Notes: generated by a model from the letters alone, not told the origin. A DNA stretch of 64,000 nucleotides from a virus (IMGVR_UViG_3300012208_000003:1209-65208); one strand, 5' to 3'. Shown: positions 11,480 through 62,635, counted from the first letter of the stretch. Numbers and translations: made by a program.

Positions 11480-11626
11480 ATGAAACGTTTGGTTTGTTCA
11501 AAATGTGGCGCGCGTTGGGTCCCAAGAACCAAAAATCCAATTCAGTGTCCACGATGCAAATCTGTAAAGTGGAAAGGCGATGGTCATCATGGCCGAACAA
11601 GCAACCAAGAAAACAGCGGAACCTAA
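11480..11626 (+). CDS. small Zn-ribbon protein
   Basis: CSKC..W.PR...P.QCPRCKS..W directly after the promoter. Confidence 0.6.
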   Translation: MKRLVCSKCGARWVPRTKNPIQCPRCKSVKWKGDGHHGRTSNQENSGT

Positions 11627-15101: not shown

Positions 15102-15166
15102 TAATGGTTTTCGATGATGTTGTTGGCGTGGCACGGAAGTAAAGGACTGGCGAGTCGCGATGCGTC

Positions 15167-17026
15167 GTGATAAGACGAGGCGCGGTTTTGCCGGCACGGA
15201 GGTCTGGAGCGGTGCATATTGTAATTGGAAAATCCGAGGGCAAGAACGTTTCCTTGGATGTAAAGGCACTGCTCCGGACCCATCTTCTAATTTGGGCGAG
15301 CACGGGAGGCGGAAAATCGTTTTTGATTCGTCGCATGGTTGAGCAATTGTTCGGGAAAACGCCAATTTTGATCATCGATCGCGAAGGCGAATTTCAAACC
15401 CTGCGCGAAAAATTTGGGTTCGTGCTCGTAGGACAAAATGGCGAAACGCCAGCCGATCCAAGGTCAGCCAAAATCGTAGCTGAGCGACTCCTCGAGATGC
15501 GCGCGTCGGCCGTGTGCGATCTATTCGAACTGAGCCATGAGGCACGTCATGAATGGGTAAGGAATTTTTATCTTGCACTGATCAATGCTCCGAAGCGACT
15601 TTGGGGACCCACAACAGTTTGGTTGGACGAGGCCCATTCCTTCGCTCCTGAGAAAGGGCAAGGTGAATCGATCGCCTACGGCGCCGTGACCGACTTCAAT
15701 GGCGTTGCCCGTAAACGAGGTTTTGGAAGCATCTTCGCCACACAACGCCTAGCCAAACTCAGCAAGAATGCCACAGCCGAAATGTACAACCAGGCAGCTG
15801 GTCCAACAGCGCAGCAATCCGATAGGGACCGTGCGGCCTACGAGATGGGCATTAGCGGGAAGGCGGCGGTGACGGAATTTTCTGACGCTTTACGTACGCT
15901 TGACCCTGGGAATTTCTTCTTTCAGGGCCGTGCTATTTCGATGGACAAGGTTCTCGTCAAGGTTGGTCCAATCCAGACTTCCCATGGAACTGAAACAACT
16001 GGCAAGGCCGCCGCCAAGGCACCGCCAACGCCAGAAGAAGTTAAGAAGATGCTGCCGAAACTAGCCGATCTTCCGAAAGTAGCCGAGGAGCGAGCCAGGA
16101 GTGAAGCCGATCTACGTAAAGAAATCCGCGAATTGAAGCAACAGTTGCGAGCCCAACCGGCCATGACAACAAAAGTTGTCACCGCCCACAAACCCATCAA
16201 AGCTTCCGCTGCGGAGATTCGCCATATACTTCAGGCAGAACTCGATCCATGGCGCAAATTCGCCCAGGATGTGCGTCGCCGGCTGGTTGACTCGATGGAA
16301 TTGATCAACAAGTTTGGCAGCATGTCGTTGGATTTCGCCAATAAGGCAGGTGACTACCTCAAAGAGTATGGCCCGATCCCCAACTATCCAGTTCTGCATC
16401 CTGACTTCAAGGCATTGAAAACAAAGGTGATTGCCCATGGAACCTTACCAGTATTACGCCATGACGAAAATCCTGTCGCGCATCGAACGGAAACTCAACC
16501 GCATCCAGCGCAACTTAACCGCGCGCGAGCAGCTCCGGGCGCTGGCGAGCGTTCCACATGGAACGGCGACCTCCCGCAAGGCGAGAAAGAAATCCTGATT
16601 GCCATTGCTCGCTATCAGGAAGGCGTCGAACGGAACCAACTCACCGTCCTAACTTCATATAAGCGATCGACCAGGGACGCTTATATTGCCAGGCTCAAGC
16701 CTAAAGGCCTGATCGAACTGCGCGGCGATCGGATCCTTGCGACCGAAGCCGGCATTGCAGCCCTGGGCAGCGACTATACGCCTCAACCTGCCACTGGCGA
16801 GGAATTGCAGCGATACTGGATGTCGGAACTTCCCGAGGGCGAGAAGAAAATCCTCCAATTGCTGATTGCTGCAGGCGGGGAGCCCGTAGACAGGGAGAAA
16901 TTGGACGAAGCCACGGGATTTGCCAGGTCCAGCAGGGATGCTTATCTAAGCCGCCTGGGTGCCAAACGCTTAGTGCATGCGATTGGCCGCGGTCAAGTGC
17001 AGGCTTCTCAAAGTTTGTTCACATAG
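15167..17026 (+). CDS. HerA/FtsK-like ATPase with duplicated C-terminal winged helix
   Basis: ASTGGGKS, IDREGEF, LDEAH, ARKRG..ATQR; two LP.GEK.IL...RS(T/S)RDAY repeats. Confidence 0.8.
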   Translation: MIRRGAVLPARRSGAVHIVIGKSEGKNVSLDVKALLRTHLLIWASTGGGKSFLIRRMVEQLFGKTPILIIDREGEFQTLREKFGFVLVGQNGETPADPRSAKIVAERLLEMRASAVCDLFELSHEARHEWVRNFYLALINAPKRLWGPTTVWLDEAHSFAPEKGQGESIAYGAVTDFNGVARKRGFGSIFATQRLAKLSKNATAEMYNQAAGPTAQQSDRDRAAYEMGISGKAAVTEFSDALRTLDPGNFFFQGRAISMDKVLVKVGPIQTSHGTETTGKAAAKAPPTPEEVKKMLPKLADLPKVAEERARSEADLRKEIRELKQQLRAQPAMTTKVVTAHKPIKASAAEIRHILQAELDPWRKFAQDVRRRLVDSMELINKFGSMSLDFANKAGDYLKEYGPIPNYPVLHPDFKALKTKVIAHGTLPVLRHDENPVAHRTETQPHPAQLNRARAAPGAGERSTWNGDLPQGEKEILIAIARYQEGVERNQLTVLTSYKRSTRDAYIARLKPKGLIELRGDRILATEAGIAALGSDYTPQPATGEELQRYWMSELPEGEKKILQLLIAAGGEPVDREKLDEATGFARSSRDAYLSRLGAKRLVHAIGRGQVQASQSLFT

Positions 17027-23830: not shown

Positions 23831-23942
23831 TGTTTAGGCGTTACATGGGCCAATTGGTAGGCCAACTGATTCTTAATCAGTCTATCCTGGTTCAAATCCA
23901 GGTGTGATTCCCCGCAAGGGGCGCTTGAACGACATCCAGGGC
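23820..23942 (+). ncRNA. Y RNA-like unit 1 (tRNA-Lys(CTT)-like cloverleaf cargo)
   Basis: CCTGG/CCAGG stem, CACTG, TTTAGGCG/CGCTTGAA, TTACATG, CGACAT; D, anticodon (TTCTTAA) and T arms inside. Confidence 0.75.
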
Positions 23943-24389: not shown

Positions 24390-24529
24390 TGGCACTCACT
24401 GTATCTGCTTACATGTCATATGGAGACCGAGGTCGTTGGTTCGAATCCAACCGTCCCCATTTCGACGGGGACGTAGCTCAGTGGTAGAGCGCGTAGGCCG
24501 AAAGGCCAAAGCGGATCGACATAGTGCCA
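24390..24529 (+). ncRNA. Y RNA-like unit 5 (YrlA-like T arm, acceptor, D arm order)
   Basis: TGGCACT/AGTGCCA, CACTG, TACATG, CGACAT; GTTGG-TTCGAAT-CCAAC, CGTCCCC/GGGGACG, TAGCTCAGTGGTAGAGC. Confidence 0.8.
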
Positions 24530-27004: not shown

Positions 27005-27130
27005 TACGAGTTCACCGTCCTACGCCGTCCAGTGGCGAGCGGACGTGAGTACGTTCCACTGGCAGGGAGGCTATCGCGCTAGTTAGGCGTGGCCTCCCTG
27101 AGACGATCTTTAACGAAAAGGAGAACACAA

Positions 27131-27817
27131 ATGTCAGGATTCTTAGCAAAACTTCGCGTGGTCACGTTGGGCTCCGTGCACGATCTACTTGATAGGGCCA
27201 TCGATTTAAATTCGCCGTCCGTGATCCGGCAGTACACCCGGGATCTAGAGGACGCGCTCGACCGCATGAAGAGCGAAGCGGCGGTCCAGGCCGGCACAGT
27301 TCGTACCTTGCAGCGCGAAAAAGGAGAGCTCGAAGGCCGGATCAAGACCACCGAAGTAACGATTCAGCACCTGGTTCAGGCCGGGCACGAAGACTTGGCG
27401 CGGCCGAAAGCGGCTGAGCTAACACGCATGCGAGCCAAATTTGCCGGAGCGGATGAAAATATCGAACACGCAAGAAAAGCGTCTACCGATATCGACATTG
27501 CCGTTTCCAATCTCGAAGGCAAGCATGCCGAAATGGTCTCCAGAGTACGCGAACTCGAACAACTCGACCGCGATACCAAGGCCAAGAATTCCGCAGCATC
27601 AGCTCTGGCAGCAGCTGGCCGACTGATCCAGGGCGGCAGCGATGTCAATGTGGACGATGTGCAAAGCCGCATGAAGGCGAGTAACGATGTCGCTCAGGAA
27701 AAATTCGCCAGGGCGCTCGGCGAATCTGCCATCCAAGAAGACGCGGAAACCGCCGCGGCTACCGATGCTGTTTTGGCGGAATTTCGACAAGGCAAAGTGG
27801 CAAGCAGTAAGTGGTAA
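27131..27817 (+). CDS. pspA: PspA/IM30-family protein
   Basis: N-terminal amphipathic helix, LLDRA..SP..IRQY.RDLE, long coiled coil, G.EDLAR. Confidence 0.75.
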   Translation: MSGFLAKLRVVTLGSVHDLLDRAIDLNSPSVIRQYTRDLEDALDRMKSEAAVQAGTVRTLQREKGELEGRIKTTEVTIQHLVQAGHEDLARPKAAELTRMRAKFAGADENIEHARKASTDIDIAVSNLEGKHAEMVSRVRELEQLDRDTKAKNSAASALAAAGRLIQGGSDVNVDDVQSRMKASNDVAQEKFARALGESAIQEDAETAAATDAVLAEFRQGKVASSKW

Positions 27818-27836
27818 GCAGTTTAGGCGCGGAGTC

Positions 27837-27909
27837 GCAGGCATGGCGTGTAGAGAATCGGAGTGGTACGCATTGACATGGCCGGCACTGGTTCGGCAGG
27901 GCAGCGCAG
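27837..27909 (+). ncRNA. pentamer (NNNNG) guide-like array A
   Basis: GCAG, G at 27845 to 27900 every 5 nt, GCAGC, GCAG. Confidence 0.85.
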
Positions 27910-27924
27910 GCACGGTGAGTTGAC

Positions 27925-28167
27925 GTGAGCACCATCGAAGAACGCATCAAGACGCTCGTCAGCGACAATCTCGGCGTTGGCGAGGAGGAAGTCACATCCA
28001 ATGCATCGTTCGAGCATGATCTTCACGCGGATTCATTGGATATCGTTGAATTGGTCATGGTAATTGAAGAAGAATTCAAAATCGAAATACCCAACGAGCA
28101 AGCAGAGGAGCTCGTCAACGTTGGGCTCTTAATTGAGTATGTGACCAAGCGCGTTGGGAAGCAGTAA
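27925..28167 (+). CDS. acpP: acyl carrier protein
   Basis: [39 protein letters not shown]. Confidence 0.9.
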
Positions 28168-28207
28168 GTAGTTTGGGCGCGGAGCAGTAAAAGCACGGTA
28201 GGTCATC

Positions 28208-28286
28208 GCAGGCGCGGACAGGCGGGTTTCGGTTTGTGAAGGAGAGGCTAGTCATGTCCCGGCATGAAGGGGGCAAGGCATTGCAG
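28208..28286 (+). ncRNA. pentamer guide-like array B
   Basis: GCAG, 14 units (one hexamer), GCAG. Confidence 0.85.
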
Positions 28287-28300
28287 GCAAGGAGACGTTT

Positions 28301-29806
28301 ATGAATGAAAGTGGTCTATCGAAGAATAAAATCATCGCGGAGCTTTCGAAGTCCGCGCATGGCAGTTTGCAAGAATATGTGTCCGTCGGCAAACAGGCCG
28401 CAACGGAGCACGGCGAATTTTTCGCACATCTAATTGCTTGGGATCGCTTGAAAGGCGCGATTCGCGACAGCAAAATTGCTTTGCCGATCGTGAGTTTACT
28501 GGCCCCAAATTATCCGGCCGAATTTGTGGAGAATTCGCTGGCAGCTCTTTCTCTGCTCAATCCCCGCGAGCAGCTCAAGGCGCTCCGGTTCGTGCTAGAG
28601 ACACGTGTGCCCGGACACATGACTTCAATCACCCATACTCTTGGCATTTCGCTGCTCGAGCGCGAAAAAAATTGGCCAAAATGGGAACGGCAAATGCTCC
28701 AGCACCGTGCCGTGCTCAAGGAATTGTTCAGCCTTTTGCACGTCAAGCCGCGCGATCAGCGCACCAAAGCATGTCTCTGGCGTTGCGATAAGCACGATGG
28801 CAAGCGCATTCCGCTGCCGTATCCGGAAGGTGGGCTGTTTGAAATTGTGGCACGGCTCAAAGACCTGCCACCGACGGAAGCGGCCGGCGTAATCATGAAT
28901 AAAAAAATTCCGTTCCTTGTTGCCATGGGAGCGCTCGGCGAGAAAGCCCGAGAAACGGATCTCGTGTTGGCGCTCATCAAATCAATGACGAGCACGGAAT
29001 TGATCACTAACACGAAGATGCTCGAACGCCTGGGCATCAAGACGAACCCGGCGCTGCGCGGCGCTTTCCAGGAAGCGCTGGAAAAGGCCGGCAAGAGCAC
29101 GGCCAACATTCTCAAGACGACTCGTGCGGCTGAGAATATCGACGATGAAGAATTGAAAGAGAATCTTCGTGGCTTGCAAGAAAAACAAATTGCAAGCCTT
29201 GGCGGCGAAGGCAATTGGGCCGTTTTGGCCGATAAGTCAGGTTCCATGACCAAGGCGATCGAACTTGCCAAACATGTTGCTGCTACTTTGGCAAAATTGG
29301 TCCATGGCAAAGTGTGGTTGATCTTTTTCGACACTGCGCCACAATCCATCGATGTTACGGGCATGGCGCTGGACGTTATCAAAAACGTTACACGATACGT
29401 TCAAGCTAACGGCGGAACATCGATTGGATCCGGTTTATTGCGCCTATTCGAAGCGAAAGAGGAGGTTGACGGCGTTTGCATTATTTCGGACGGCGGCGAA
29501 AATACAGCGCCGACGTTCCCGGATGTCTACAAACGATATTCGGAGATGTTCAGGAAGATGCCGCCAGTTTATCTTTATCAGACGCAAGGCGACTCGCCGG
29601 CATTGATTACGACGATGCAGCAAGCTGGACATGACATGCAGGTATTCGACTTGCGCGGCCAGGAGACCGATTTTTACTCCCTGCCAAATCTTGTTCAGAC
29701 GATGCGGACTCAAAGGTTTTCCCTGTCGGACGAAATTATGGGAACAAAACTTTTGCAGTTGTCGGATGCTTACAAGACGACTGTCAAAAAAACGGCCACG
29801 GCGTAG
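28301..29806 (+). CDS. Ro60/TROVE-like protein with C-terminal vWA domain
   Basis: Helical N-terminal 300 aa (KIPFLVAMGAL, SMTSTELITN..L.RLG); MIDAS DKSGS, GGTS, ISDGGEN. Confidence 0.65.
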   Translation: MNESGLSKNKIIAELSKSAHGSLQEYVSVGKQAATEHGEFFAHLIAWDRLKGAIRDSKIALPIVSLLAPNYPAEFVENSLAALSLLNPREQLKALRFVLETRVPGHMTSITHTLGISLLEREKNWPKWERQMLQHRAVLKELFSLLHVKPRDQRTKACLWRCDKHDGKRIPLPYPEGGLFEIVARLKDLPPTEAAGVIMNKKIPFLVAMGALGEKARETDLVLALIKSMTSTELITNTKMLERLGIKTNPALRGAFQEALEKAGKSTANILKTTRAAENIDDEELKENLRGLQEKQIASLGGEGNWAVLADKSGSMTKAIELAKHVAATLAKLVHGKVWLIFFDTAPQSIDVTGMALDVIKNVTRYVQANGGTSIGSGLLRLFEAKEEVDGVCIISDGGENTAPTFPDVYKRYSEMFRKMPPVYLYQTQGDSPALITTMQQAGHDMQVFDLRGQETDFYSLPNLVQTMRTQRFSLSDEIMGTKLLQLSDAYKTTVKKTATA

Positions 29807-29950
29807 AAATCGGCGTGCCCGTCACGTTCCGAAAGGCTTGACCGGTATCTAGGTTGAGAGTGACGGAGCCGGTAAAAGGGACAAGCACTAACGTTCCTCT
29901 GGCACACGTGGGGACGGCCAATTCACCGGCCGTCCTGCCAGTTAGGCATG

Positions 29951-30103
29951 GCAGGCGCGGAGAGTCTTGACGAGATACGATTTGGAGGGACGTGCAGCGG
30001 TCCGTTCCGTCGAGGCTGGCAGCGGCAGCGCAGGCTTGGCGAGTCACGTTCTGGTAAGTCACGTTGTGGAGAGTAGAGGAAAGACCGGAACGCGGCAAGG
30101 CAG
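29951..30103 (+). ncRNA. tandem pentamer guide-like arrays C1 and C2
   Basis: GCAG (29951), 15 units, GCAG (30030), 13 units, GCAG (30100). Confidence 0.85.
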
Positions 30104-30140
30104 GCATGGAGTTAAATTCTAATGAAAGGAGGACAAGAGC

Positions 30141-30449
30141 ATGCTCAATGCGTTGAAATCTTATAGCCCTCAAAGACTAGATACTGAAGAGTTAATTGAA
30201 CTCGCAGGATTTGGTCGATTGCTTGAGGCAGAATTCACTTTGTTGAGTGTTGAAATTCCCGAATGGATTGGCAATCAATTAAAGGCCATTAGACGGGAAA
30301 TCAAAATGCGTAACGCCGATGCTATCGCGAACAAACTTCGCGCCGCAAAGGCCCGCCTTTCAACGCTCGCAACAGTAGATGAAAAAAGAGCCGCAGTTGC
30401 AGCCGAAATCGCTCAACTTGAAGAACTGGCAAAGGCCGCAAGCGCCTAA
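30141..30449 (+). CDS. helical hypothetical protein
   Basis: AGGAGG RBS, 102 aa. Confidence 0.75.
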   Translation: MLNALKSYSPQRLDTEELIELAGFGRLLEAEFTLLSVEIPEWIGNQLKAIRREIKMRNADAIANKLRAAKARLSTLATVDEKRAAVAAEIAQLEELAKAASA

Positions 30450-35321: not shown

Positions 35322-37391
35322 TTGAAGATTTTAATCAAAATATTTTGCGGGCCCTTGTTTTTGATCTTGCTCTTCGGCATTGTCACGATCGAGCAATATT
35401 TCATGATGCCGCCTGTGGCTCGAGCTCAAGCAAACGTAGTTTGCGCAGCCAACTTGCCATGCACCATTACCAGTGCTTGGACTTTCACCGGCGCGCAGAT
35501 GTTCACTCAATTAAACGGCTGCCAGTATGTCAATGCCACGCAAACATTTGCGCAAGCTCTTGCCGCAGCAGGTTCAGTAGGTTGTATCGAAGTTACTCCC
35601 GGAACTTATACGGTAAGCGCGAGTGCGCTCATCCCCTATGGCGTCACCCTGCGTTCCACCAGCGGAGGAATTCTATCAATAGCTACGGGAGTCACTTTAA
35701 CTATTGCAGGGAACATCCTAGGCAGCCCTAACGGGCAAATCTTCGCTTACGTTGGGACCGGTGCAACAGTCATTGCGCAAAGCTTGGTTGAAGCTCTATG
35801 GTTTCCAGGCGCTAATCTCGGCGTGCAAATAAATAACGCCGCATTGGCCCTGAACAACGCCAAGGGCGGAGGTAACACCCACGGAGCCGGGAAAATACAT
35901 ATCGTGGGCGGAGCTTATTCCGTTCCACTTGGCGTCATTAATCCGCAGGCGGATGTAATCATTTCTTGCGATGAGAACCAGGCGACGGCCATCAACTTTA
36001 CCGGAGCGTCGGGGATCGCTCTGCTTTTCAACGTTGGCACGGCTGGAGGGACATATTACGAGTGGGGCCAAGGAATCGAAAACTGCCAGCTGTACGGCCC
36101 AGGCTATCCAAGCGGCTCAGGACAAGCAGGAACGGGGATTCAAATAGGCGATTCGACCCATGCAACGATAGGCTTGAAGATGGAGAACAGCTATCTTGCC
36201 GGATTCTCAATAGGCTTAACTTGGGGGAATACCTCCGCTTGGGGAGCGAAAATAGACCACACGGTATTTACGTTGAACACTCAGGACTTTGTATATAACC
36301 TGAATCTAGGCGGCGGCACAGAAAATATAGCACTGGACCACGTAGTTTTCGCTCCAAGCTACAACGCAATAATCGCCAACGACGTGGTGATTGGACCAGG
36401 GAATACCACCACAGATATTTTTTTTAGTAACTGTTCTTTCGACAATGGGGAACTGGTTGTCTCTAACACCTCGGCGGTTGGCTTGACAAAGCCGCATTTC
36501 GAATACAGCACCAATACGACGACACCGTTTGCCGCTATCAGCGGCGGAGCGTTCGTAACTATGTACACTCCGGTTGTGCAATACGATCCGGTCAGCGGAA
36601 CCGTTCCAACATCCGTATTTTCCGTGAATAGTTCGACGCTCGATATCTACTCGCCAAAAATGAATTCCAATGTGGCCATCACGAATTATCTGAACGCTAC
36701 TTCTTCGGCAACCAGGGTATGGGGGATCGAACAATTAAATGGGATCGGAGGCCCAACTTATTCCGGAGGTTGGCAGATCGAATGCGGCACAACTACACAG
36801 ACCTGCAACTATGTTCTGGGCGCAGGCGCATTTAACGTCTCAGCCACAGGCGGCATCAATCTTCAGAACAATACTGCCGTTACGGGTCTGCTTACGGCTA
36901 CGGGAAACACCGCAGCTCTCACCGCCGATTGGACCTGTGGCACCGGCGGTACGGTTTCCTCCTGCGTGGCCGCGACGATCATTGGTTCTGGCGGTGGAGT
37001 GCCTCTTACCTTCACGCTTCCGCTAGTCGCACGGTCCTACACGCTCGAATGCGACGGCGTAGTGGGGCAAGCCACCGCAGTGACCGCCAATAGCTGGAAT
37101 CTGCTAACAGCGACGAATGGCGCGACGAATGTTACCACATCCTACAGCATGAACACGGCAGTAACAGCCATGACTGGCGGGGCGACTACTGATCAGGCGT
37201 CAACAACGACAACTTTCTTAATTGGTCCGACATGGACGCTTGGTGGCACAGCGACCAAGATGCCTTTTCATATCTATGCGAAGATTGAAGGCGCGTCGGC
37301 TTCAGGAACAGTGGTCAGTCTCCAATTAGTTGCTCCAACAGTCGGAGATTTGGTTACCATCTATCGCGGCACATCTTGTAGGATCTTCTAA
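35322..37391 (+). CDS. beta-helix (pectin lyase-like) spike / depolymerase candidate
   Basis: 689 aa, Gly/Thr/Asn-rich; I.V.PGTY and QINNAA..GKIHI..GAY; N-terminal hydrophobic segment. Confidence 0.6.
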   Translation: MKILIKIFCGPLFLILLFGIVTIEQYFMMPPVARAQANVVCAANLPCTITSAWTFTGAQMFTQLNGCQYVNATQTFAQALAAAGSVGCIEVTPGTYTVSASALIPYGVTLRSTSGGILSIATGVTLTIAGNILGSPNGQIFAYVGTGATVIAQSLVEALWFPGANLGVQINNAALALNNAKGGGNTHGAGKIHIVGGAYSVPLGVINPQADVIISCDENQATAINFTGASGIALLFNVGTAGGTYYEWGQGIENCQLYGPGYPSGSGQAGTGIQIGDSTHATIGLKMENSYLAGFSIGLTWGNTSAWGAKIDHTVFTLNTQDFVYNLNLGGGTENIALDHVVFAPSYNAIIANDVVIGPGNTTTDIFFSNCSFDNGELVVSNTSAVGLTKPHFEYSTNTTTPFAAISGGAFVTMYTPVVQYDPVSGTVPTSVFSVNSSTLDIYSPKMNSNVAITNYLNATSSATRVWGIEQLNGIGGPTYSGGWQIECGTTTQTCNYVLGAGAFNVSATGGINLQNNTAVTGLLTATGNTAALTADWTCGTGGTVSSCVAATIIGSGGGVPLTFTLPLVARSYTLECDGVVGQATAVTANSWNLLTATNGATNVTTSYSMNTAVTAMTGGATTDQASTTTTFLIGPTWTLGGTATKMPFHIYAKIEGASASGTVVSLQLVAPTVGDLVTIYRGTSCRIF

Positions 37392-38174: not shown

Positions 38175-38978
38175 GTGCCGGCAGCTTTCCTAAATCAGGC
38201 AAGTACTCGTTGGGAGCATTATTTCACGATGTCGCTCTCGATGGATGCTAGTGCCGACCTACAAGATTCCACGAATTTGACAGTATTCGTCCTCGAGTCG
38301 TTGATTGGTTCAGCTTCGATTGTAGATTCCTGCAGTATGACGATGCCAGTCTCCGGATTGCTTGTTGGCGCAGCCGATACCATTCCTTCCATCGCTCTCG
38401 CGATGCCGGTATCAGCAATGCTTTCTGGAGCTACCGACATCGCAACGTCACTCATCTTGACGATCCCGGTAAGTGCAGGCTTGGATGCCAATGCCGCACT
38501 AAGCGATTCCGCCGGCAATCTTTTTCTTAATTCCATGTCACTGACAGTTTCTGCGGATATTGCAATCATTGCCGTCGACGCGGAATCCGTATCGATCTCA
38601 CTGGATACTACGGCCATTCTGGCCGATTCCACCTCTAGCACAATGGTTGCTTCCGGAATATTTGCCGGGGCGGTCGACATTACACCTTCGAATATCGTCA
38701 GCATGAGCGCATCGGCCGCTATTATCGGCTCCGCTGGATCCACGAGCAGCGGTGGGTTTACTTATGTCGGCGAGGTCAGTTTCAGTGGATTGGTAGCGGA
38801 CCTGACAGTTTCATTCATGATTGGTGCAGCACCGCCAGTATCGCCGCGTTGGCCGGCAAATTACATACAGCCGGATTTTCGTGTTCCATCAGTCAATTCG
38901 CTCGTTGCCGATTATCCAGTAGGCGAAAACATGTTGAAATTGGATTGGCCAATTCCCAAACATGAGGAGCCAAAATAA
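38175..38978 (+). CDS. Ser/Ala-rich repeat protein with C-terminal QPDFR module (start uncertain)
   Basis: About 21-aa imperfect repeats (MPVS...A.D). Confidence 0.55.
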   Translation: MPAAFLNQASTRWEHYFTMSLSMDASADLQDSTNLTVFVLESLIGSASIVDSCSMTMPVSGLLVGAADTIPSIALAMPVSAMLSGATDIATSLILTIPVSAGLDANAALSDSAGNLFLNSMSLTVSADIAIIAVDAESVSISLDTTAILADSTSSTMVASGIFAGAVDITPSNIVSMSASAAIIGSAGSTSSGGFTYVGEVSFSGLVADLTVSFMIGAAPPVSPRWPANYIQPDFRVPSVNSLVADYPVGENMLKLDWPIPKHEEPK

Positions 38979-39014
38979 ACACTCTTAACTAGAAACTTAG
39001 GCTGCAAGAAAGTA

Positions 39015-39043
39015 TTGACAGGGTTCGTTTAATGTGTGAGTCT
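39015..39043 (+). promoter_or_regulatory. promoter directly upstream of array D
   Basis: TTGACA, 17 nt, GAGTCT preceded by TGT. Confidence 0.45.
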
Positions 39044-39049
39044 TTAAGT

Positions 39050-39125
39050 GCCGGGGCAAGGCGCGGCGTGACCAGTCCCGACGAGCATTGGCCGGGTACG
39101 TCCCGAACGTGGCAGGGCAGGAATG
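39050..39125 (+). ncRNA. pentamer guide-like array D
   Basis: G at 39050 to 39105 every 5 nt, hexamer AACGTG, GCAGG, GCAG. Confidence 0.85.
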
Positions 39126-39135
39126 GCACAGTAGA

Positions 39136-39855
39136 ATGTCTTTTAAGTTAAATCCGATGGATATTGACGGCCCAAATCGGCCTGACAATGCCACACAGGC
39201 CGATTTTCGCGTCCCTTTCACCGATCCTGAGGTAGCTGATTATCCGGTTGGCATGAACGTATTAGATTTGAGCTGGCCAATCCCGCGATACAATCAGCCG
39301 AACTAGGAGATTCGCATGGGAAATTACGTTCAGCCGGATTCTGATACGAAAAAAAATTCGCAAATAACGGTTCAGACAGGCATCAATGCGTTGATACCAG
39401 GTCCGGCACACGCCGGCAATCATACGCAAAGCGATTTTCGAAAGCCGACGATCGTGCCAACCCCGGGAACGGCAACGAAAAATCCGATCGCATTGACATG
39501 GCCGCTGCCAGCATACGTTCAACCAAATAATGCGACGAGCGTCACCGGGTTAAAAGGTCCGATGGGAACAAGCAACAATCCTCATTAGGAGAATGAAAAA
39601 ATGCCGAACTATTCTCAACCTAACTCAGGCAATCCAGTCTTGGATTCGCGCGTCGGTGTTATCGCCGTGACTGGCAATGCTTTCGTGAATGGGCCGGTTT
39701 CGCCAGGAAATCACATCCAGCCGAACACTAGCGCTCCTCCTGCTAACCGGCATGGTGCCAATTTTGCCGTGGGCGGTAACCCGATGAATATCGGAACGGT
39801 GACACGGTATGTGCAACCAATTTCCGCCAAGGAATTCCCGTCCGGTAAAATATAA
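39136..39855 (+). CDS. three small Pro/Asn-rich related proteins (39136..39306, 39316..39588, 39601..39855)
   Basis: Shared N.(Y/H).QP, DFR.P, L.WP.P.Y.QP motifs; AGGAG RBS on the last two. Confidence 0.65.
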
Positions 39856-39895: not shown

Positions 39896-39968
39896 GGGCG
39901 CGTAGCTCACTTGGGAGAGCGCGGGCTTTGCATCCCCGAGGCAGTCGGTTCGATTCCGATCGCGTCCA
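39896..39968 (+). tRNA. tRNA-Ala(TGC)
   Basis: GGGCGCG/CGCGTCC acceptor with G3:U70; loop TT-TGC-AT. Confidence 0.85.
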
Positions 39969-39979
39969 CAGATTTATAT

Positions 39980-40053
39980 GGCGTCGTAGGGAAACGGTTT
40001 AACCCGCTTGTTTTGGGTACAAGAGATTGTCGGTTCGAATCCGACCGACGCCA
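39980..40053 (+). tRNA. tRNA-Pro(TGG)
   Basis: GGCGTCG/CGACGCC; CTTGT-TTTGGGT-ACAAG; TTCGAAT T loop. Confidence 0.85.
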
Positions 40054-40090
40054 CTTTTTGTGATCCGCCGCGTGGCCTAGCGTTCAAGGC

Positions 40091-40188
40091 TCTAGGAGTG
40101 GTGGGTAGCGCGTGGTCCAACGTGAGAGCCTTCTCTGGGCTTAGTGGTTGGCTCTCGTTCGGGACGGATAAGCTTAGGCACTCCTAGA
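40091..40188 (+). ncRNA. unidentified rod-shaped RNA within the tRNA cluster
   Basis: TCTAGGAGTG/CACTCCTAGA outer and GAGAGCC/GGCTCTC inner stems. Confidence 0.5.
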
Positions 40189-40202
40189 AAAAAATTTTAC
40201 GG

Positions 40203-40274
40203 CCCGCGTTAGCTCAATGGTAGAGCCCCGGCTTGAAGCACCGGTAATGTTCGGTTCGATTCCGATACGCGGGA
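40203..40274 (+). tRNA. tRNA-Phe(GAA)
   Basis: CCCGCGT/ACGCGGG; loop TT-GAA-GC. Confidence 0.8.
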
Positions 40275-40286
40275 TCAAGAGTTTGT

Positions 40287-40362
40287 GGCCCTGTTACCGT
40301 AACGGATAGCGGTCTTGAGTTCTAATCAAGATGTGCGAGTTCGAATCTCGCCAGGGCCTCCA
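40287..40362 (+). tRNA. tRNA-Arg(TCT)
   Basis: GGCCCTG/CAGGGCC; CTTGA-GTTCTAA-TCAAG; encoded CCA. Confidence 0.85.
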
Positions 40363-40367
40363 AGTTT

Positions 40368-40459
40368 GGAGTCGTGGCCGAGTTGACTTAGGCACCGGGC
40401 TGTAGCCCCGGAGTCCCATCGGGACCTAGACGAAGGTTAGAGCCCTTCCGACTCCACCA
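40368..40459 (+). tRNA. tRNA-Tyr(GTA)
   Basis: GGAGTCG/CGACTCC; CCGGG-CTGTAGC-CCCGG; long variable arm; CCA. Confidence 0.8.
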
Positions 40460-40464
40460 GATTT

Positions 40465-40540
40465 GGGTGCGTAGCTCAGTTGGCAGAGCATTCGATTCTT
40501 AATCGACAGGTCGTGAGTTCAAAACTCACCGCACCCACCA
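40465..40540 (+). tRNA. tRNA-Lys(CTT)
   Basis: GGGTGCG/CGCACCC; loop TT-CTT-AA; CCA. Confidence 0.9.
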
Positions 40541-40545
40541 AGTTT

Positions 40546-40621
40546 GGCTCTGTAGCTCAGCAGGAAGAGCAGCGGGCTCATAATCCGCGCGCCGTTGGTT
40601 CGAATCCAACCAGAGCCACCA
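40546..40621 (+). tRNA. tRNA with CAT anticodon (elongator Met or Ile2)
   Basis: GGCTCTG/CAGAGCC; GCGGG-CTCATAA-TCCGC; CCA. Confidence 0.9.
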
Positions 40622-40637
40622 GGTTGGACAGGTGTTC

Positions 40638-40733
40638 GGGAGGTTAGCCTCAATTGGTAAGGCAGCGGACCTGAAACCCGCCGATGGTCGGCGAACCCGG
40701 CCAATGTGAGTTCGAATCTCACACCTCCCGCCA
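40638..40733 (+). tRNA. tRNA-Ser(TGA)
   Basis: GGGAGGT/ACCTCCC, G73, CCA; loop CC-TGA-AA; long variable arm. Confidence 0.85.
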
Positions 40734-47673: not shown

Positions 47674-47685
47674 TCAGTCGGCATG

Positions 47686-47763
47686 GCAGGCTTGGACAGT
47701 CGAGAGTTGGACCGTCCGGTCAAGCACCTGCTTGCAGTGGCGTGGAATGGCTTGGAATCGCAG
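47686..47763 (+). ncRNA. pentamer guide-like array E
   Basis: GCAG, 14 pentamers (12 end in G), GCAG; hairpin 47773-47798 follows. Confidence 0.85.
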
Positions 47764-47827
47764 GCGAAGCTAAAAGGCGCATCTTCTGGTGCGCCTTTCT
47801 AATTTCAAAAACGAAAGGAAGTGCATC

Positions 47828-48775: not shown

Positions 48776-49285
48776 TGCTGAAGCAACTGCCCGATGGACG
48801 CACTGTCGAAATCATCCCATTGACCTACGGACGCGCCAGAATTGTCATAGGCCATCCTGACGATCTTTCCTACGATGATGCCTGGTGATATGACACTCCA
48901 GAAGCTGCGGTCGCAGCTTTACTTCAATGGGACCCACTGAAAACACCTGAACCGGACGGTTGGATGCGTCATCCACATACTGGCAGGCGTCGACCTGGCG
49001 GAGATCCCCGAAAAGAATATGTTCACCGATGAATGGAGGCTTGAATGATTACTTTCAAAGCAGGGGACATTGTGACTGTCAGCCGGCTGAATTGCTACGA
49101 CGAACCAATAACGCAAACCGTTCAGTTGATCGAACGGCAGAAGGACGGGAACGTGCCCGGGTGGTCTGCCCGGGTCCAGGCTCCACGCAAACAGAAAGGT
49201 CGGCTCACCTGGGTAGCGGATGGCGAGATGCCAGATTTGCCGGGGCAAGAAGTGCAAACTAAGGTTTGAAAAAGGGAGAAACAAA

Positions 49286-50386
49286 ATGAAAGCAGCAACA
49301 GCAGCGCAGAAGTCTATTAGACATTTGGCAGCACTGAAAGCGTGGGCCACAATGCGAGCAAGAAAAGGTCAGCCTGCGCCAGTACCAAAGCCAGTAAGAC
49401 CCCGACCGAAGATGGAACCGCACAAGAAGATCGTATTGCCGAAGCAGGAACGGCCGGTATCAGCAAACGAGCTGCTTTTGCGAACCGTCGTTTTGATTTT
49501 GACTTTCAACGGCATCGGCAACCGCCGCAAAGTGCAATCCGATGAATTCCAGGCCGCCTCAACGCCGAACGCAAAGAATGACAATTGGTTCAACACCACC
49601 AAGAAACTCCTCGATGCCGAAGAGCTCGAAAAAATTACTTCGCTGTATGGCGAGCTACACCGGTTTGTCGAGAGCCGGGCGCTGCCATCCATGATCAAAA
49701 AAGGCGTCCATCTTCTTCCACTGGATTTCATCGAGGAAGTGAATGCCCGGCTGAAACAAGGTGAGAAAGATCTCGAGCCGCTGGTCGAGAGCATGGTCAA
49801 GAAACTCAACACCTACATTGCCGAAGCCAAAGCCCGGCTATCGAAAGTAAAAGTGGGCGATCAGGTCAAAAACTTCTTCAACGAGGACGATTACCCGACC
49901 GGGAAAGAATTGCGCGCCGCTTTCAAGCTGACCTGGCGATTCGTCTATGTGGACAGTGCCAAGAATCTTGAAGCGGTTTCCAAGGAGATCTACGAAGAAG
50001 AACGCGCGAAGGCCGAGGCCGCTTGGGCCGAAACACGTGAAACCATCAAGCAACTGCTTCGTACGCAGTTATCGGAATTGGTCGATCATTTGGTTACTCG
50101 ACTAACACCGGACGAAAGCGGCAAGAAGAAGATCATTCGCGATGATTCAACTAACAGGTTGCAGGAATTCTTGACGACTTTCGATTCGCGGAACATTGTC
50201 AATGACGTACAGATGAAAATCCTTGTCGACCAGGCCAAGAATCTGCTCAAGACAGCAGACGCCGACATGCTCCGGACAGATAAGACCGTCCGCGACTACG
50301 TTAGACACGGGTTTGAAACCGTTCAAACTTTACTAAGCGGCATGGTGGTTGACAAGCCTCACCGCTCCATCAAACTCGAAGATTAG
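49286..50386 (+). CDS. DUF3150-like protein
   Basis: K.LLD, G..LLP, F..DDYP, L..LV.HL..RL, L.EF..F..RN. Confidence 0.6.
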   Translation: MKAATAAQKSIRHLAALKAWATMRARKGQPAPVPKPVRPRPKMEPHKKIVLPKQERPVSANELLLRTVVLILTFNGIGNRRKVQSDEFQAASTPNAKNDNWFNTTKKLLDAEELEKITSLYGELHRFVESRALPSMIKKGVHLLPLDFIEEVNARLKQGEKDLEPLVESMVKKLNTYIAEAKARLSKVKVGDQVKNFFNEDDYPTGKELRAAFKLTWRFVYVDSAKNLEAVSKEIYEEERAKAEAAWAETRETIKQLLRTQLSELVDHLVTRLTPDESGKKKIIRDDSTNRLQEFLTTFDSRNIVNDVQMKILVDQAKNLLKTADADMLRTDKTVRDYVRHGFETVQTLLSGMVVDKPHRSIKLED

Positions 50387-50411: not shown

Positions 50412-50500
50412 TTACGGCGAGGCATGGCGTGCAACGTTCAGGCCTGATGTGGTGAGGTCGGTCCTGGCACGGCCCGACGATTTGAGGCAGGGCCGGCACG
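50412..50500 (+). ncRNA. pentamer guide-like array F
   Basis: G at 50416 to 50476 every 5 nt; ends GCAGG-GCCG; preceded by extended -10-like TGA-TAGACT (50400-08). Confidence 0.85.
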
Positions 50501-50506
50501 CTTCCC

Positions 50507-50541
50507 AAAAGGCGGGAGATTCTTTTTCTCCCGCCTTTTTT
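50507..50541 (+). terminator. intrinsic terminator after array F
   Basis: AAAAGGCGGGAGA/TCTCCCGCCTTTTTT. Confidence 0.85.
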
Positions 50542-50564
50542 ATATCCCGCTTCGAAGATTAACC

Positions 50565-50593
50565 TTGCTATTTCATAGACCCTAAGATATAAT
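50565..50593 (+). promoter_or_regulatory. sigma70-type promoter
   Basis: TTGCTA, 17 nt, TATAAT. Confidence 0.75.
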
Positions 50594-50936: not shown

Positions 50937-50942
50937 GGCACG

Positions 50943-51043
50943 GCAGGCGAGGAGAGATGCGTCAAGGGGAGAATTGGATAGCCGAGCAGTGCAGTGGCAA
51001 GGCAGCGCAGGAACGGCTAGGGCGGACGCCGAAAAGTCCGCCC
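50943..51043 (+). ncRNA. pentamer guide-like array G with GCCGAAAA-loop hairpin
   Basis: G at 50946 to 51001 every 5 nt, GCAGC, GCAG; hairpin 51020-51043. Confidence 0.85.
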
Positions 51044-57319: not shown

Positions 57320-57429
57320 GCAGGAGAGGAGAGATAAGGCTCGGAGAGAAGAAGGCGAGGCTAATCCGGGCGTGGTCAGCACTGTTACGGCAAGGCAGGA
57401 ACGGCTAGGGCGACGCCGCGAAGTCGCCC
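57320..57429 (+). ncRNA. pentamer guide-like array H with GCCGCGAA-loop hairpin
   Basis: GCAG, 14 units (one hexamer), GCAG; hairpin 57408-57429. Confidence 0.85.
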
Positions 57430-58567: not shown

Positions 58568-58671
58568 GCAGGAATGGCCAGTCCTGGCAAGTCGAGGCAA
58601 GTCGGGACCAGAATTGGCCGGGCCAGTTGCGGCAAGGCAGGAACGGCAAGCGGCGGCCGACAACGCCGCTT
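58568..58671 (+). ncRNA. pentamer guide-like array I with GCCGACAA-loop hairpin
   Basis: G at 58571 to 58636 every 5 nt, GCAG; hairpin 58648-58671. Confidence 0.85.
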
Positions 58672-58690: not shown

Positions 58691-59408
58691 ATGAAAGCGA
58701 TTCATCTGAAGCCACAACTTGCTGGTGGGAAGATTTTCAGCACGAAAGTGGGCCGGAAGTGGACCTACATCAAAGTGCGCCTGGCAACAAAAACGATCAA
58801 GCGCGCAATCGCAATGGCCGGGAACTAGATGTTAAACCGTGCTCGACAGCCAATCCGTTACTGGATTGCCCGGACATTTTTAGAAGCGCTGTGGTTCATC
58901 TGTGGACTGAACAGAAAGCAATGAAAGGAGAAACTATGGGAGGCGAAGAATTCTTCACTGAAAGAAGGGGGAGCGATTTGGAAGCTACGTTCCGCGAAGC
59001 AGTAGAAAAAGCGCAATACGACCATGGGCACAGCGGCTACACCGGAACCATTGGCGAAAAAGTGAGTGCGATTCTTCGCGCTACCGTCGGTACCTGGGGC
59101 GAGGCGCGCGAATTCGCCCGGAACGATTTGCGCAAGAATGGCGATGACCACGACAAGTGGGGTCCAGCCTGGGCAGTGAAAGTGACCGAACCAGGCAATG
59201 TAGGCTTCCTCTTTTACGGCGTGGCGAGTTCCTGACCATGAAGAAAAAGAAGAAGCGTGATTGGTCAAAGGTCATCGAAGAACTTTGCCTGTGCGGCCAC
59301 AAAAAATCGCAGCATGGTGGAGTAGTTCATCATCTTGAGTGCTTCCAATGCGCTTGCACGCGATTCACTTGGAAAGCATTCCTCAATAAGCAAGGGAAGC
59401 AAATTTAG
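58691..59408 (+). CDS. three small hypothetical genes (58691..58828, 58936..59235, 59238..59408)
   Basis: AGGAG RBSs; GHSGYTGTIGEK..DKWGPA motif in the second. Confidence 0.55.
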
Positions 59409-59428: not shown

Positions 59429-59543
59429 GCAGGTAGGGCATGGCGCGGCGCGGCTTGGTTGGCCATGGAATGGCTTGGCAGGCAGCGGCGCCGCAGGCAT
59501 GGCAAAGAAGGACGGCAAAGCCGGAGAGCCGCGAATCTCCGGC
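59429..59543 (+). ncRNA. pentamer guide-like array J with GCCGCGAA-loop hairpin
   Basis: G at 59432 to 59487 every 5 nt, GCGCC, GCAG; hairpin 59520-59543. Confidence 0.85.
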
Positions 59544-62527: not shown

Positions 62528-62635
62528 CCATGCCTGCGGTGCCATACCAAATCGGGCCGGTTCTTGACATGCCCAACCGAACCATTTCCAGCCAATTCAT
62601 ACCCCGCCAACAAAGATTCTACCATAGGAGGATAG

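Follow-up and report, generated by a model that had tools for sequence, protein, structure and literature searches.

Spacers of period-5 G arrays in a phage genome carry codon prefixes of a neighbouring gene

Introduction

What can a run of pentamers built around an invariant G, lying between genes, have to do with the genes on either side of it? The question is raised by a stretch of viral DNA of 64,000 nt (IMGVR_UViG_3300012208_000003:1209-65208; hereafter the window), which covers 64 kb of the genome of a soil phage (65,208 bp, a single contig). Between open reading frame (ORF) A, which ends at 38978, and ORF B (39136-39306), the window contains a G-rich stretch at 39048-39128, here called Array D, with a G at position 3 of every pentamer. 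A first-pass annotation of this DNA had read thirteen dinucleotides of the stretch as codon prefixes of a peptide motif shared by three flanking genes, and had suggested that one guide may address the repeated motif. Here we report that the dinucleotides of Array D and of other arrays of its kind carry codon prefixes of a neighbouring gene, and we weigh the ways in which such copies could have arisen and could be used.

Results

Dinucleotides of Array D match a peptide module in the flanking ORFs

Starting from 39048 on the plus strand, Array D reads GTGCC GGGGC AAGGC GCGGC GTGAC CAGTC CCGAC GAGCA TTGGC CGGGT ACGTC CCGAA. These twelve NNGNN pentamers are in register (39048-39107) and leave the free dinucleotides, or spacers, GT GG AA GC GT CA CC GA TT CG AC CC. 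An extra C at 39108 is followed by four more pentamers on the same strand, GTGGC AGGGC AGGAA TGGCA (slip and tail, 39108-39128). The thirteen dinucleotides that had been noticed at first exist as read, each being the first two bases of a pentamer, and eleven of them are in register with period 5 from 39053. The other two, at the end of the series, lie beyond the one-base slip at 39108, which had gone unmentioned, and the extent of the array had been taken too short by one pentamer at the front (GTGCC, 39048) and by two at the back.

Decoded as codon prefixes, the series agrees at 7/13 positions with each of three peptides: DNATQADFRVPFT in ORF B (39184-39222), ANYIQPDFRVPSV at the C-terminus of ORF A (38856-38894) and GNHTQSDFRKPTI in ORF C (39415-39453). 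This bears out the count given in the first-pass annotation, and the peptides lie where it had placed them; a repeat search also detects their DNA similarity. All three are copies of a module, G-N-x-x-Q-P-D-F-R-x-P, that is common to the paralogous small ORFs A to D. When the thirteen dinucleotides were shuffled and compared with the four flanking ORFs, seven or more matches were reached in 238 of 20,000 shuffles (P = 0.012, amino-acid level), while comparison at the nucleotide level within 700 nt gave P = 0.006. The stride-3 nucleotide comparison with ORF A gave 7/12. Since the targets are paralogues, the three matches are not independent, and the evidence of Array D by itself is suggestive. 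What makes the match convincing is that other arrays, and relatives of the phage, follow the same rule.

The correspondence is local and specific to codon positions 1 and 2

Runs of at least eight Gs at period 5 were found 13 times on the plus strand and three times on the minus strand, while other combinations of base and period gave at most eight such runs, except where the same arrays were re-read at period 10. With single misses allowed, the genome has 16 arrays, whereas shuffled sequences have 2.3 on average and never more than 5. Each array's spacer series was run against both strands of the entire genome to find its dinucleotides at a constant stride, and locality was assessed for the 12 arrays with at least 12 units. 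Using pentamer positions 1-2 and a stride of 3, the top match genome-wide lay within 600 nt of the array for 9/12 arrays. For 23 control settings, in which other pairs of pentamer positions (4-5, 5-1' and 2+4 among them) or strides of 2, 4, 5, 6 or 7 were used, only 0-1 of the 12 arrays gave a local match. Shuffling the order of the units gave P < 0.02 for 9/16 arrays (Fisher combined P = 1.6e-9). In addition, a fraction of 0.576 of the units found a match in the flank of their own array, while flanks belonging to other arrays gave 0.437 (Mann-Whitney P = 4e-6).

Three of the array-target pairs were re-read by eye. The matched bases were codon positions 1-2 of an ORF in every case (coordinates worked out by hand), and seven of the matched ORFs are at least 90 amino acids long. 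The targets, stretches of 10-16 codons, were found on either strand and on either side of the array within ~500 nt. Seven well-supported arrays are sense to the matched ORF and one, the array at 27840, is clearly antisense, to a PspA-like gene; two further arrays are antisense only if the small ORFs found there are real. The third base of the target codon agreed with pentamer position 4 or 5 at chance level (16 and 21 of 85), and no motif resembling a protospacer-adjacent motif was seen by eye in the target flanks. At the mismatches (n = 87) the base of the array was A in 27 cases, C in 29, G in 18 and T in 13. Among 64 mismatched units, seven agreed at the amino-acid level only (Leu, Arg or Ser; 1.3% expected, P = 1.7e-5). 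A code operating at the amino-acid level was nevertheless rejected, as five of the seven units are single synonymous steps away and one of the two Ser switches has a Thr intermediate in relatives. The arrays themselves are not translated, because their units include TAG and N-N-G gives the wrong residues; there are also no consistent starts.

Taken as a whole, these comparisons confirm that the spacers carry codon prefixes of a neighbouring gene. In this lineage, the free dinucleotides of the arrays contain a copy, kept in codon register but lacking the wobble base, of a coding segment next to them. The first-pass interpretation thus extends well beyond Array D as far as the codon prefixes are concerned; the guide action it proposed is putative.

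Matches at individual sites

On the plus strand, the array that lies with its boundary repeats at 27838-27915 matches the minus strand at 27329-27366 (9/13, P = 0.0005) and so is antisense to codon positions 1-2 of ORF 27089-27817. The array at 28209-28292 matches 28352-28390, in frame in ORF 28301-29806 (7/13, P = 0.005), and reaches 9/13 against the allele of this gene in the relatives L257 and L259. Two tandem plus-strand arrays within 29945-30109 both match ORF 30141-30449, one (29954-30024) at 30225-30269 (8/15) and the other (30028-30088) at 30351-30389 (7/13). Further downstream on this strand, a TAGACT box, an array and a terminator with a 13-bp stem (folding z = -4.5) follow one another at 50414-50545, a unit that looks like a free-standing RNA gene of ~125 nt. 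Its array (50416) matches 50072-50119 in the upstream ORF 49220-50386 at 11/16 units, seven of them consecutive (P = 0.002). A separate TTGCTA-17-TATAAT site for gene 50616 was noted 3´ of this unit (region 50414-50593). The array 5´ of the parB-like gene 59568, at 59430-59502 on the plus strand, matches 59308-59342 (7/12 units, 19/24 nt, P = 0.014). On the minus strand, two tandem arrays follow a TATAAT box at 1048-1185 (P = 0.0025 and 0.0045); array 1063(-) matches the minus strand at 943-977 (8/12), and the other match of the pair is to the plus strand at 1405-1440, in frame in ORF 1225-3621 (7/12).

No nearby match was found for four plus-strand arrays: that at 15137-15186 (P = 1.0), that at 47680-47765, which follows a TTGCCC-18-TAGAAT site also called by the promoter scan, the short array 5´ of the ligase gene (57367-57411) and the 16-unit array at 58569-58671 with a terminator-like hairpin at 58648-58671 (P = 0.75). 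The same was true of a minus-strand array that follows a TAGAAT box (62528-62610, P = 0.35). The plus-strand array 5´ of the Ku gene, which runs into a hairpin at 51020-51043 (50937-51043 in all), has a weak nearby match (6/12, P = 0.15). Separately, for the array 5´ of a HerA-like gene (15139-15184) the best match genome-wide is distant, at 49961-49989 (7/10, in frame). This segment lies in ORF 49220-50386, the gene also echoed by array 50416, and the match is borderline, with ~0.1 expected.

The correspondence recurs in relatives

Relatives of the phage from metagenomes and IMG/VR, with 79-90% protein identity, carry arrays as well. In G001, the IMG/VR record of L266 (91.8 kb, classed as a provirus by IMG/VR), the best match in the whole record at stride 3 lay within 700 nt for 3/6 arrays, while strides of 2, 4, 5 or 6 gave 0/6. 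The ortholog of Array D in L257 has the spacers AC AA TA AC CA CC GA TT AG AA CC. Its best match, common to L257 and G001, is PNYSQPDFRNP, the N-terminus of the ORF D ortholog in L257 (8/11 units, 19/22 nt, a score reached by 0/500 shuffles). The orthologs in L259 (9/19, reached by 12/500 shuffles) and L260 (7/11, 6/500) match too, and the L259 array carries the match onward into ...R.PLSP.T..R. The first-pass annotation had staked its case on a family member that matches better than 7/13: there is none in the genome under study, but the ortholog in L257/G001, with 8/11, is one.

Comparing Array D with its L257 ortholog, the six identical units are exactly those for N, Q, P, D, F and P (hand count). 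The four units at x-positions have all changed, and the unit for Arg has gone from CG to AG, a synonymous change. So clean a partition has a chance of 1/462 (hand arithmetic), and the pattern would fit one array addressing many paralogues. For three arrays of the window the match to a relative's allele is better than that to the phage's own (9 vs 7/13, 9 vs 8/15 and 8 vs 7/13). At one site shared with L259, an array is present with unrelated spacers.

Arrays are intergenic cassettes with a boundary repeat

In a total of 193 pentamers, G fills position 3 in 99% and position 4 in 54%, while position 5 holds C in 50% and G in just 4%; the consensus is N-N-G-(G>A,T)-(C>A,T). Positions 1-2 vary and in composition resemble codon positions 1 and 2. 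The most frequent triplets are GGC (62), GGT (20), GTC (19) and GGA (18), while GAG occurs once. The spacer is exactly 2 nt, and each array has 8-16 units in register. The variable run is bracketed by a direct repeat of 16 nt, GGCAnnGCAGGCAyGG, with one or two units per site; it occurs 19 times, as compared to 1.55 expected, and 17 of the 19 occurrences are at array borders. We define the G-period-5 boundary-repeat cassette as an intergenic element with at least eight period-5 Gs and this repeat at one border at least. Array D is one copy of such a cassette, which is found throughout the lineage; it has 12 plus 4 units and a 3´ repeat, GGCAGGGCAGGAATGG, at 39111-39126 (two mismatches; there is no clear 5´ copy). 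Several cassettes that are indels between relatives also include AGCAGTTTRGGCGCGGAG as a conserved 5´ module and take along the stop codon of the gene upstream.

All of the arrays are intergenic and lie at gene junctions. They are followed by genes of many kinds (Ku, ligase, ParB, acyl carrier protein and others), and for 12/15 arrays in the window the G strand is the strand of the downstream gene. Downstream of the three inverted arrays, minus-strand ORFs score as non-coding; inverted arrays (1063-1183 and 62543-62608, minus strand), each with its own -10-like box, may be sources of antisense RNA. TATAAT, TAGAAT or TAGACT boxes stand 4-9 nt ahead of arrays 1128(-), 62543(-), 47689 and 50416. 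Hairpins are found 3´ of arrays 50416, 50946 and 58571, the strongest being 50507-50545 (z = -4.5), 51020-51043 and 58648-58671, and some stand between the array and the ribosome-binding site. The arrays themselves fold no better than shuffled sequences (z = -0.4 to +1.9; -0.37 for the in-register part of Array D). With Rfam 15, only tRNAs reached the gathering score and no array gave a match at E up to 5, and Tandem Repeats Finder reported nothing.

At Array D, a promoter-like TTGACA-17-GAGTCT site with a weak -10 lies just 5´ of the array on the plus strand (39015-39043, with TTGACA at 39015-39020) and is kept in L257 as TTGACA..GAGCCT. The first-pass annotation had placed the array at a predicted transcription start; the TTGACA is indeed there, but the site is a weak match to consensus and was not called by the consensus scan. 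The scan instead called a sigma-70-like GTGGCA-17-TAGAAT on the same strand (39109-39137, 9/12), which overlaps the 3´ end of the array and the ATG of ORF B.

Cassettes of this type are widespread

The boundary motif together with eight period-5 Gs was found in IMG/VR (at least 129 stretches) and in bacterial genomes from many phyla (at least 124 contigs); the G-anchored pentamer cassette is thus a widespread family. Arrays elsewhere are of the form (NNGGC)n, with the boundary motif GGCAYGGCAGGC, a G at period 5 and units of 5k+4 nt that are often in tandem, up to seven. The triplet is nearly always GGC, in a set that was selected for a GGC majority. In cluster F mycobacteriophages such as Saal, an array and the start annotated for gene 51 overlap. 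Saal has four (NNGGC)n units in tandem, each 59 nt long, at 36584-36832 (L255 2492-2740), between genes 50 and 51, and the annotated start lies inside this array; a later ATG with an A-rich leader looks the likelier start of the gene. Arrays such as that in the gap between genes 50 and 51 share the boundary motif, the G period and the 5k+4 units with the arrays of our phage but are more regular, often tandem and have spacers without a local match.

In the literature that was searched, which did not extend to subscription journals and supplementary files, we found no description of G-period-5 arrays or of sequences that correspond to codons at 5 nt each. The repeats of 12 bp known from Tweety gp54 (PMC2884959) are a different element, and nothing relevant to the arrays was found in PMC7474061. 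No proteins of this phage were found in the 2-kb flanks of 80 IMG/VR array loci.

The module ORFs and other features of the genome

ORF A (38229-38978, plus strand; its frame is open from 38034) has no Pfam or PHROGs family, and a homologue search found none. ORF B encodes 56 amino acids on the plus strand and is missing in a variant from soil metagenomes, in which contigs from two soil runs (X3 and X4) join 39128 to 39311; Array D there abuts ORF C, and the DFR of ORF C is changed to DYR. ORF C (39316-39588, plus strand, 90 amino acids; one homologue found, 89% identity) contains, besides GNHTQSDFRKPTI, a more degenerate module copy at its N-terminus, GNYVQPDSDTK at 39319-39351. ORF D (39601-39855, plus strand, 84 amino acids) has degenerate module copies (PNYSQPN.., GNHIQPN..). 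ORFs A to D (38229-39855) are built of a module of ~45 residues bounded by Y-x-Q-P-(D/N), which runs across the ORF borders (RYNQPN* then MGNYVQPD; AYVQPNN.. then MPNYSQPN) and differs in copy number between relatives, with two modules in ORF B of L257. For ORF C, 6/10 differences between our phage and L257 fall inside the module copies (25/90 residues, P = 0.025), while the targets of other arrays are not clearly hypervariable (P = 0.03-0.6). Hypervariability of the targets was rejected as a general property, the enrichment of differences being weak.

The phage encodes a gene-transfer-agent-like tail module, RecT, exonucleases, Ku, a ligase, ParB-like proteins and a tRNA cluster. The cluster, of eight tRNA genes, lies at 39896-40733, immediately 3´ of ORFs A to D, and tRNA-Lys stands apart at 23838-23913. 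A weak match to YrlA (Y-RNA-like) was seen at 24413-24525 (36.7 bits, gathering score 69).

Comparison with known systems

The closest geometrical parallel is the trp leader of Bacillus, in which 11 (G/U)AG triplets with 2-3-nt spacers wrap round the ring protein TRAP and control a terminator. The arrays share with it a G-anchored triplet and a 2-nt spacer, making a 5-nt register, about 11-16 repeats, a putative 5´ leader position, the lack of an intrinsic fold and, in some cases, a terminator-like hairpin that follows. They differ in their triplets, which are GGC or GNN rather than GAG or UAG (GAG 1/193), and in that TRAP spacers carry no information whereas the array spacers copy codons. No match to the TRAP protein (Pfam TrpBP) was found among 76 phage ORFs scanned.

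CRISPR arrays alternate repeats of 23-47 nt with unique spacers and have cas genes nearby, and the crRNA lies on a Cas7 backbone with every sixth base flipped out. The arrays likewise have, between copies of a short direct repeat, a variable segment that carries information; this information finds its match in another nucleic acid, and the periodicity suggests a protein backbone. The array repeat, however, is of 16 nt, the period is 5 with two informative bases per unit, and the target is next door in the same genome, usually in the same sense, and is read at two bases of three. A CRISPR array was rejected given the 16-nt repeat with one or two units per site and no Cas family in Pfam or PHROGs.

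Like a diversity-generating retroelement (DGR), an array repeats, as non-coding sequence, a short coding segment that lies no more than a few hundred nt away, in one case beside tail-end genes; unlike in a DGR, copy and original are of unequal length, 5 nt corresponding to 3 nt of each codon. A DGR was excluded because there is no reverse transcriptase (Pfam, PHROGs) and no adenine-specific mismatch. A T-box presents one specifier codon in a folded leader. The arrays resemble it as a putative leader RNA with codon information ahead of a terminator but have a row of 10-16 units, no fold and no Rfam match. A sponge of the CsrB/RsmZ type, with GGA in hairpin loops, was rejected (GGA in 18/193 triplets, no significant fold), as was a type III toxin-antitoxin RNA (ToxI-like, with tandem repeats of ~36 nt ahead of a terminator and a toxin gene), as Tandem Repeats Finder reported none and the downstream genes are a diverse set.

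Discussion

Two readings of the arrays appear live to us, one in which the copied codon prefixes are read as RNA and one in which they were only written, and we hold them about equally possible, each tentatively. For the former, an array would be transcribed as a 5´ leader, and an oligomeric protein would hold its G-N-N triplets, one every 5 nt, in a geometry like that of TRAP when bound to the trp leader. Gripping of the triplets would leave the dinucleotides exposed, and these would recognise the adjacent gene in codon register, blind to the wobble base. The partner would be the template DNA strand for sense arrays and the mRNA for antisense arrays. The outcome could be gene-specific control in cis, for example over read-through at the hairpin that follows, or else recognition of diverged alleles and paralogues of the neighbouring gene. 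Such a protein-held leader RNA, displaying wobble-blind dinucleotide guides to its neighbour, is a possibility that we put forward tentatively. We keep it as the working model because sharper tests follow from it, and the exact retention of Array D units at conserved module positions favours it, or else repeated re-copying.

A considerable number of observations weigh against reading by RNA. Most arrays could not pair with the mRNA they echo, being of the same sense, so that the DNA or antisense partner is something we purely infer. A nearby match is lacking for 7/16 arrays, and where there are matches they cover just 54-75% of the units, with 46 transitions to 41 transversions among the mismatches, as expected of decaying copies. 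The cassettes are dispensable: those at 27784-27924, 28165-28288 and 29847-30107 are cleanly missing in L257 and L258 (corresponding L257 positions 9722-9753, 9990-9992 and 11549-11551; 80-89% nucleotide identity). The incomplete match, the transition-rich mismatches, the dispensable cassettes and the prevailing sense orientation together favour copies that were written and then decayed. Beyond this lineage, no local spacer match was found in 376 arrays of other phages and bacteria (mean z = 0.09, with no stratum standing out), nor in the 49.8 of 57.8 kb of Saal that were searched, and a perfect Array D target was found 0 times in IMG/VR. No gene family recurs beside arrays in more than five loci, the only protein common to Saal and this phage is an HNH endonuclease, and Pfam and PHROGs gave no RNA-binding candidate among the phage proteins. 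No RNA runs containing the phage sequence were found. Finally, 3/15 arrays in the window are inverted among plus-strand genes, and the promoter-like and terminator-like sites in the consensus scans are not above the level of shuffles.

The second live reading, a templated origin without any reading, posits mobile or often rebuilt leader cassettes whose spacers are filled from nearby DNA by some process of synthesis or repair and then decay neutrally. The G-periodic scaffold alone would be functional, perhaps as an attenuator that binds protein or as an RNA sponge. Just as tentative in our estimation as the first, it accounts for cassettes that are clean presence/absence indels between close relatives, targets on either strand and either side within ~500 nt, transition-rich mismatches, arrays that at times fit a relative's allele better than their own, and arrays in other phages that work without any local match. 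It has to face the fact that we know of no enzyme that copies two bases of three and adds G-N-N. Moreover, a copier acting on DNA would be blind to reading frame, yet every match is in codon register; the units of Array D are kept where the protein module is kept, which needs selection or repeated re-copying; and spacers are unrelated between arrays that occupy one site in relatives of 85% identity. Alternatively, the element might act as DNA, the G strand being a single-stranded loading or pairing site for a recombination protein such as a RecT-type annealing protein or, in a variant, the arrays being recombination linkers at gene borders whose similarity comes from template switching. Annealing proteins of the RecT type bind with a site size of about 5 nt and assemble into rings with 11-18 subunits; the phage encodes RecT and exonucleases, and the arrays lie at gene junctions, differ between relatives as cassettes and occur in both orientations. 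We nonetheless consider a DNA element improbable, as the G strand is the coding strand in 12/15 window arrays, several arrays start just 3´ of -10-like boxes, and Saal and this phage have no recombination protein in common.

Less probable still is a codon mimic, in which the row of N-N-G would bind tRNA anticodons or another codon-register reader, as a T-box-like sensor with many specifiers before a terminator. The codon register of the matches, the prevalence of sense arrays, the hairpins 3´ of several arrays and the 7/64 mismatched units that agree at the amino-acid level (P = 1.7e-5) could be cited for it. However, a tRNA sensor would be indifferent to the order of units, at target residues Asn, Asp or Phe an N-N-G would specify Lys, Glu or Leu, and TAG occurs among the units; one array is clearly antisense and others target the upstream gene. 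The agreement in amino acids, in turn, comes down to single synonymous steps in 5/7 units and, in one of the two Ser switches, to a Thr intermediate. That an array is a silent template for targeted variation of its neighbour, akin to the template and variable repeats of a DGR and stored in a 5-nt code, seems to us very unlikely. Array D does adjoin a fast-evolving family of tail-end modules, and the differences of ORF C from L257 are concentrated in the module copies (P = 0.025), but there is no reverse transcriptase (Pfam, PHROGs), the mismatches are not adenine-specific and other targets are not clearly hypervariable. This leaves chance, the decoding being numerology that exploits two-codon-box freedom and the choice of offset. 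Array D by itself might be viewed in this way, with P = 0.006-0.012 uncorrected for the several arrays tried and about one 7/13 match expected genome-wide per array (hand arithmetic). The effect is, however, specific to positions 1-2 and stride 3, is local and is repeated in a second genome, while the same pipeline yields nothing on the 376 unrelated arrays, which thus double as a negative control for the comparison method. Chance is rejected by the stride, shuffle, own-versus-other-flank and G001 tests and is hardly credible to us.

If reading by RNA is taken one step further, the arrays might constitute a programmable nucleic-acid reader of a new kind, in which a repeat-bracketed RNA, gripped by an oligomer at a G anchor every five bases, would use its dinucleotides to read positions 1-2 of successive codons. 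This extension is rather unlikely in our judgement. Synonymous change would then not keep a single array from recognising diverged alleles and paralogues, and the phage might regulate genes of its own in this way or act on related phages. The (NNGGC)n arrays that are so widespread would be one and the same device, with their targets elsewhere.

Non-coding storage of a neighbour's codons, ordered, in frame, stripped of the wobble base and at 5 nt per codon, has no counterpart among known mobile elements, regulatory RNAs or guide RNAs. Should the dinucleotides be read, they would represent a recognition code aligned to the genetic code, from which targets could not escape by synonymous mutation since the wobble base is ignored. 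If the arrays are only written, a process that copies coding sequence in codon register into another periodicity would be a novelty in its own right. Under both readings, the effect is strong and specific. The G-period-5 scaffold, too, seems undescribed. With its boundary motif it is found across phyla, in over 250 contigs of viruses and bacteria, and it also occurs in the well-studied cluster F mycobacteriophages, where it overlaps an annotated gene start.

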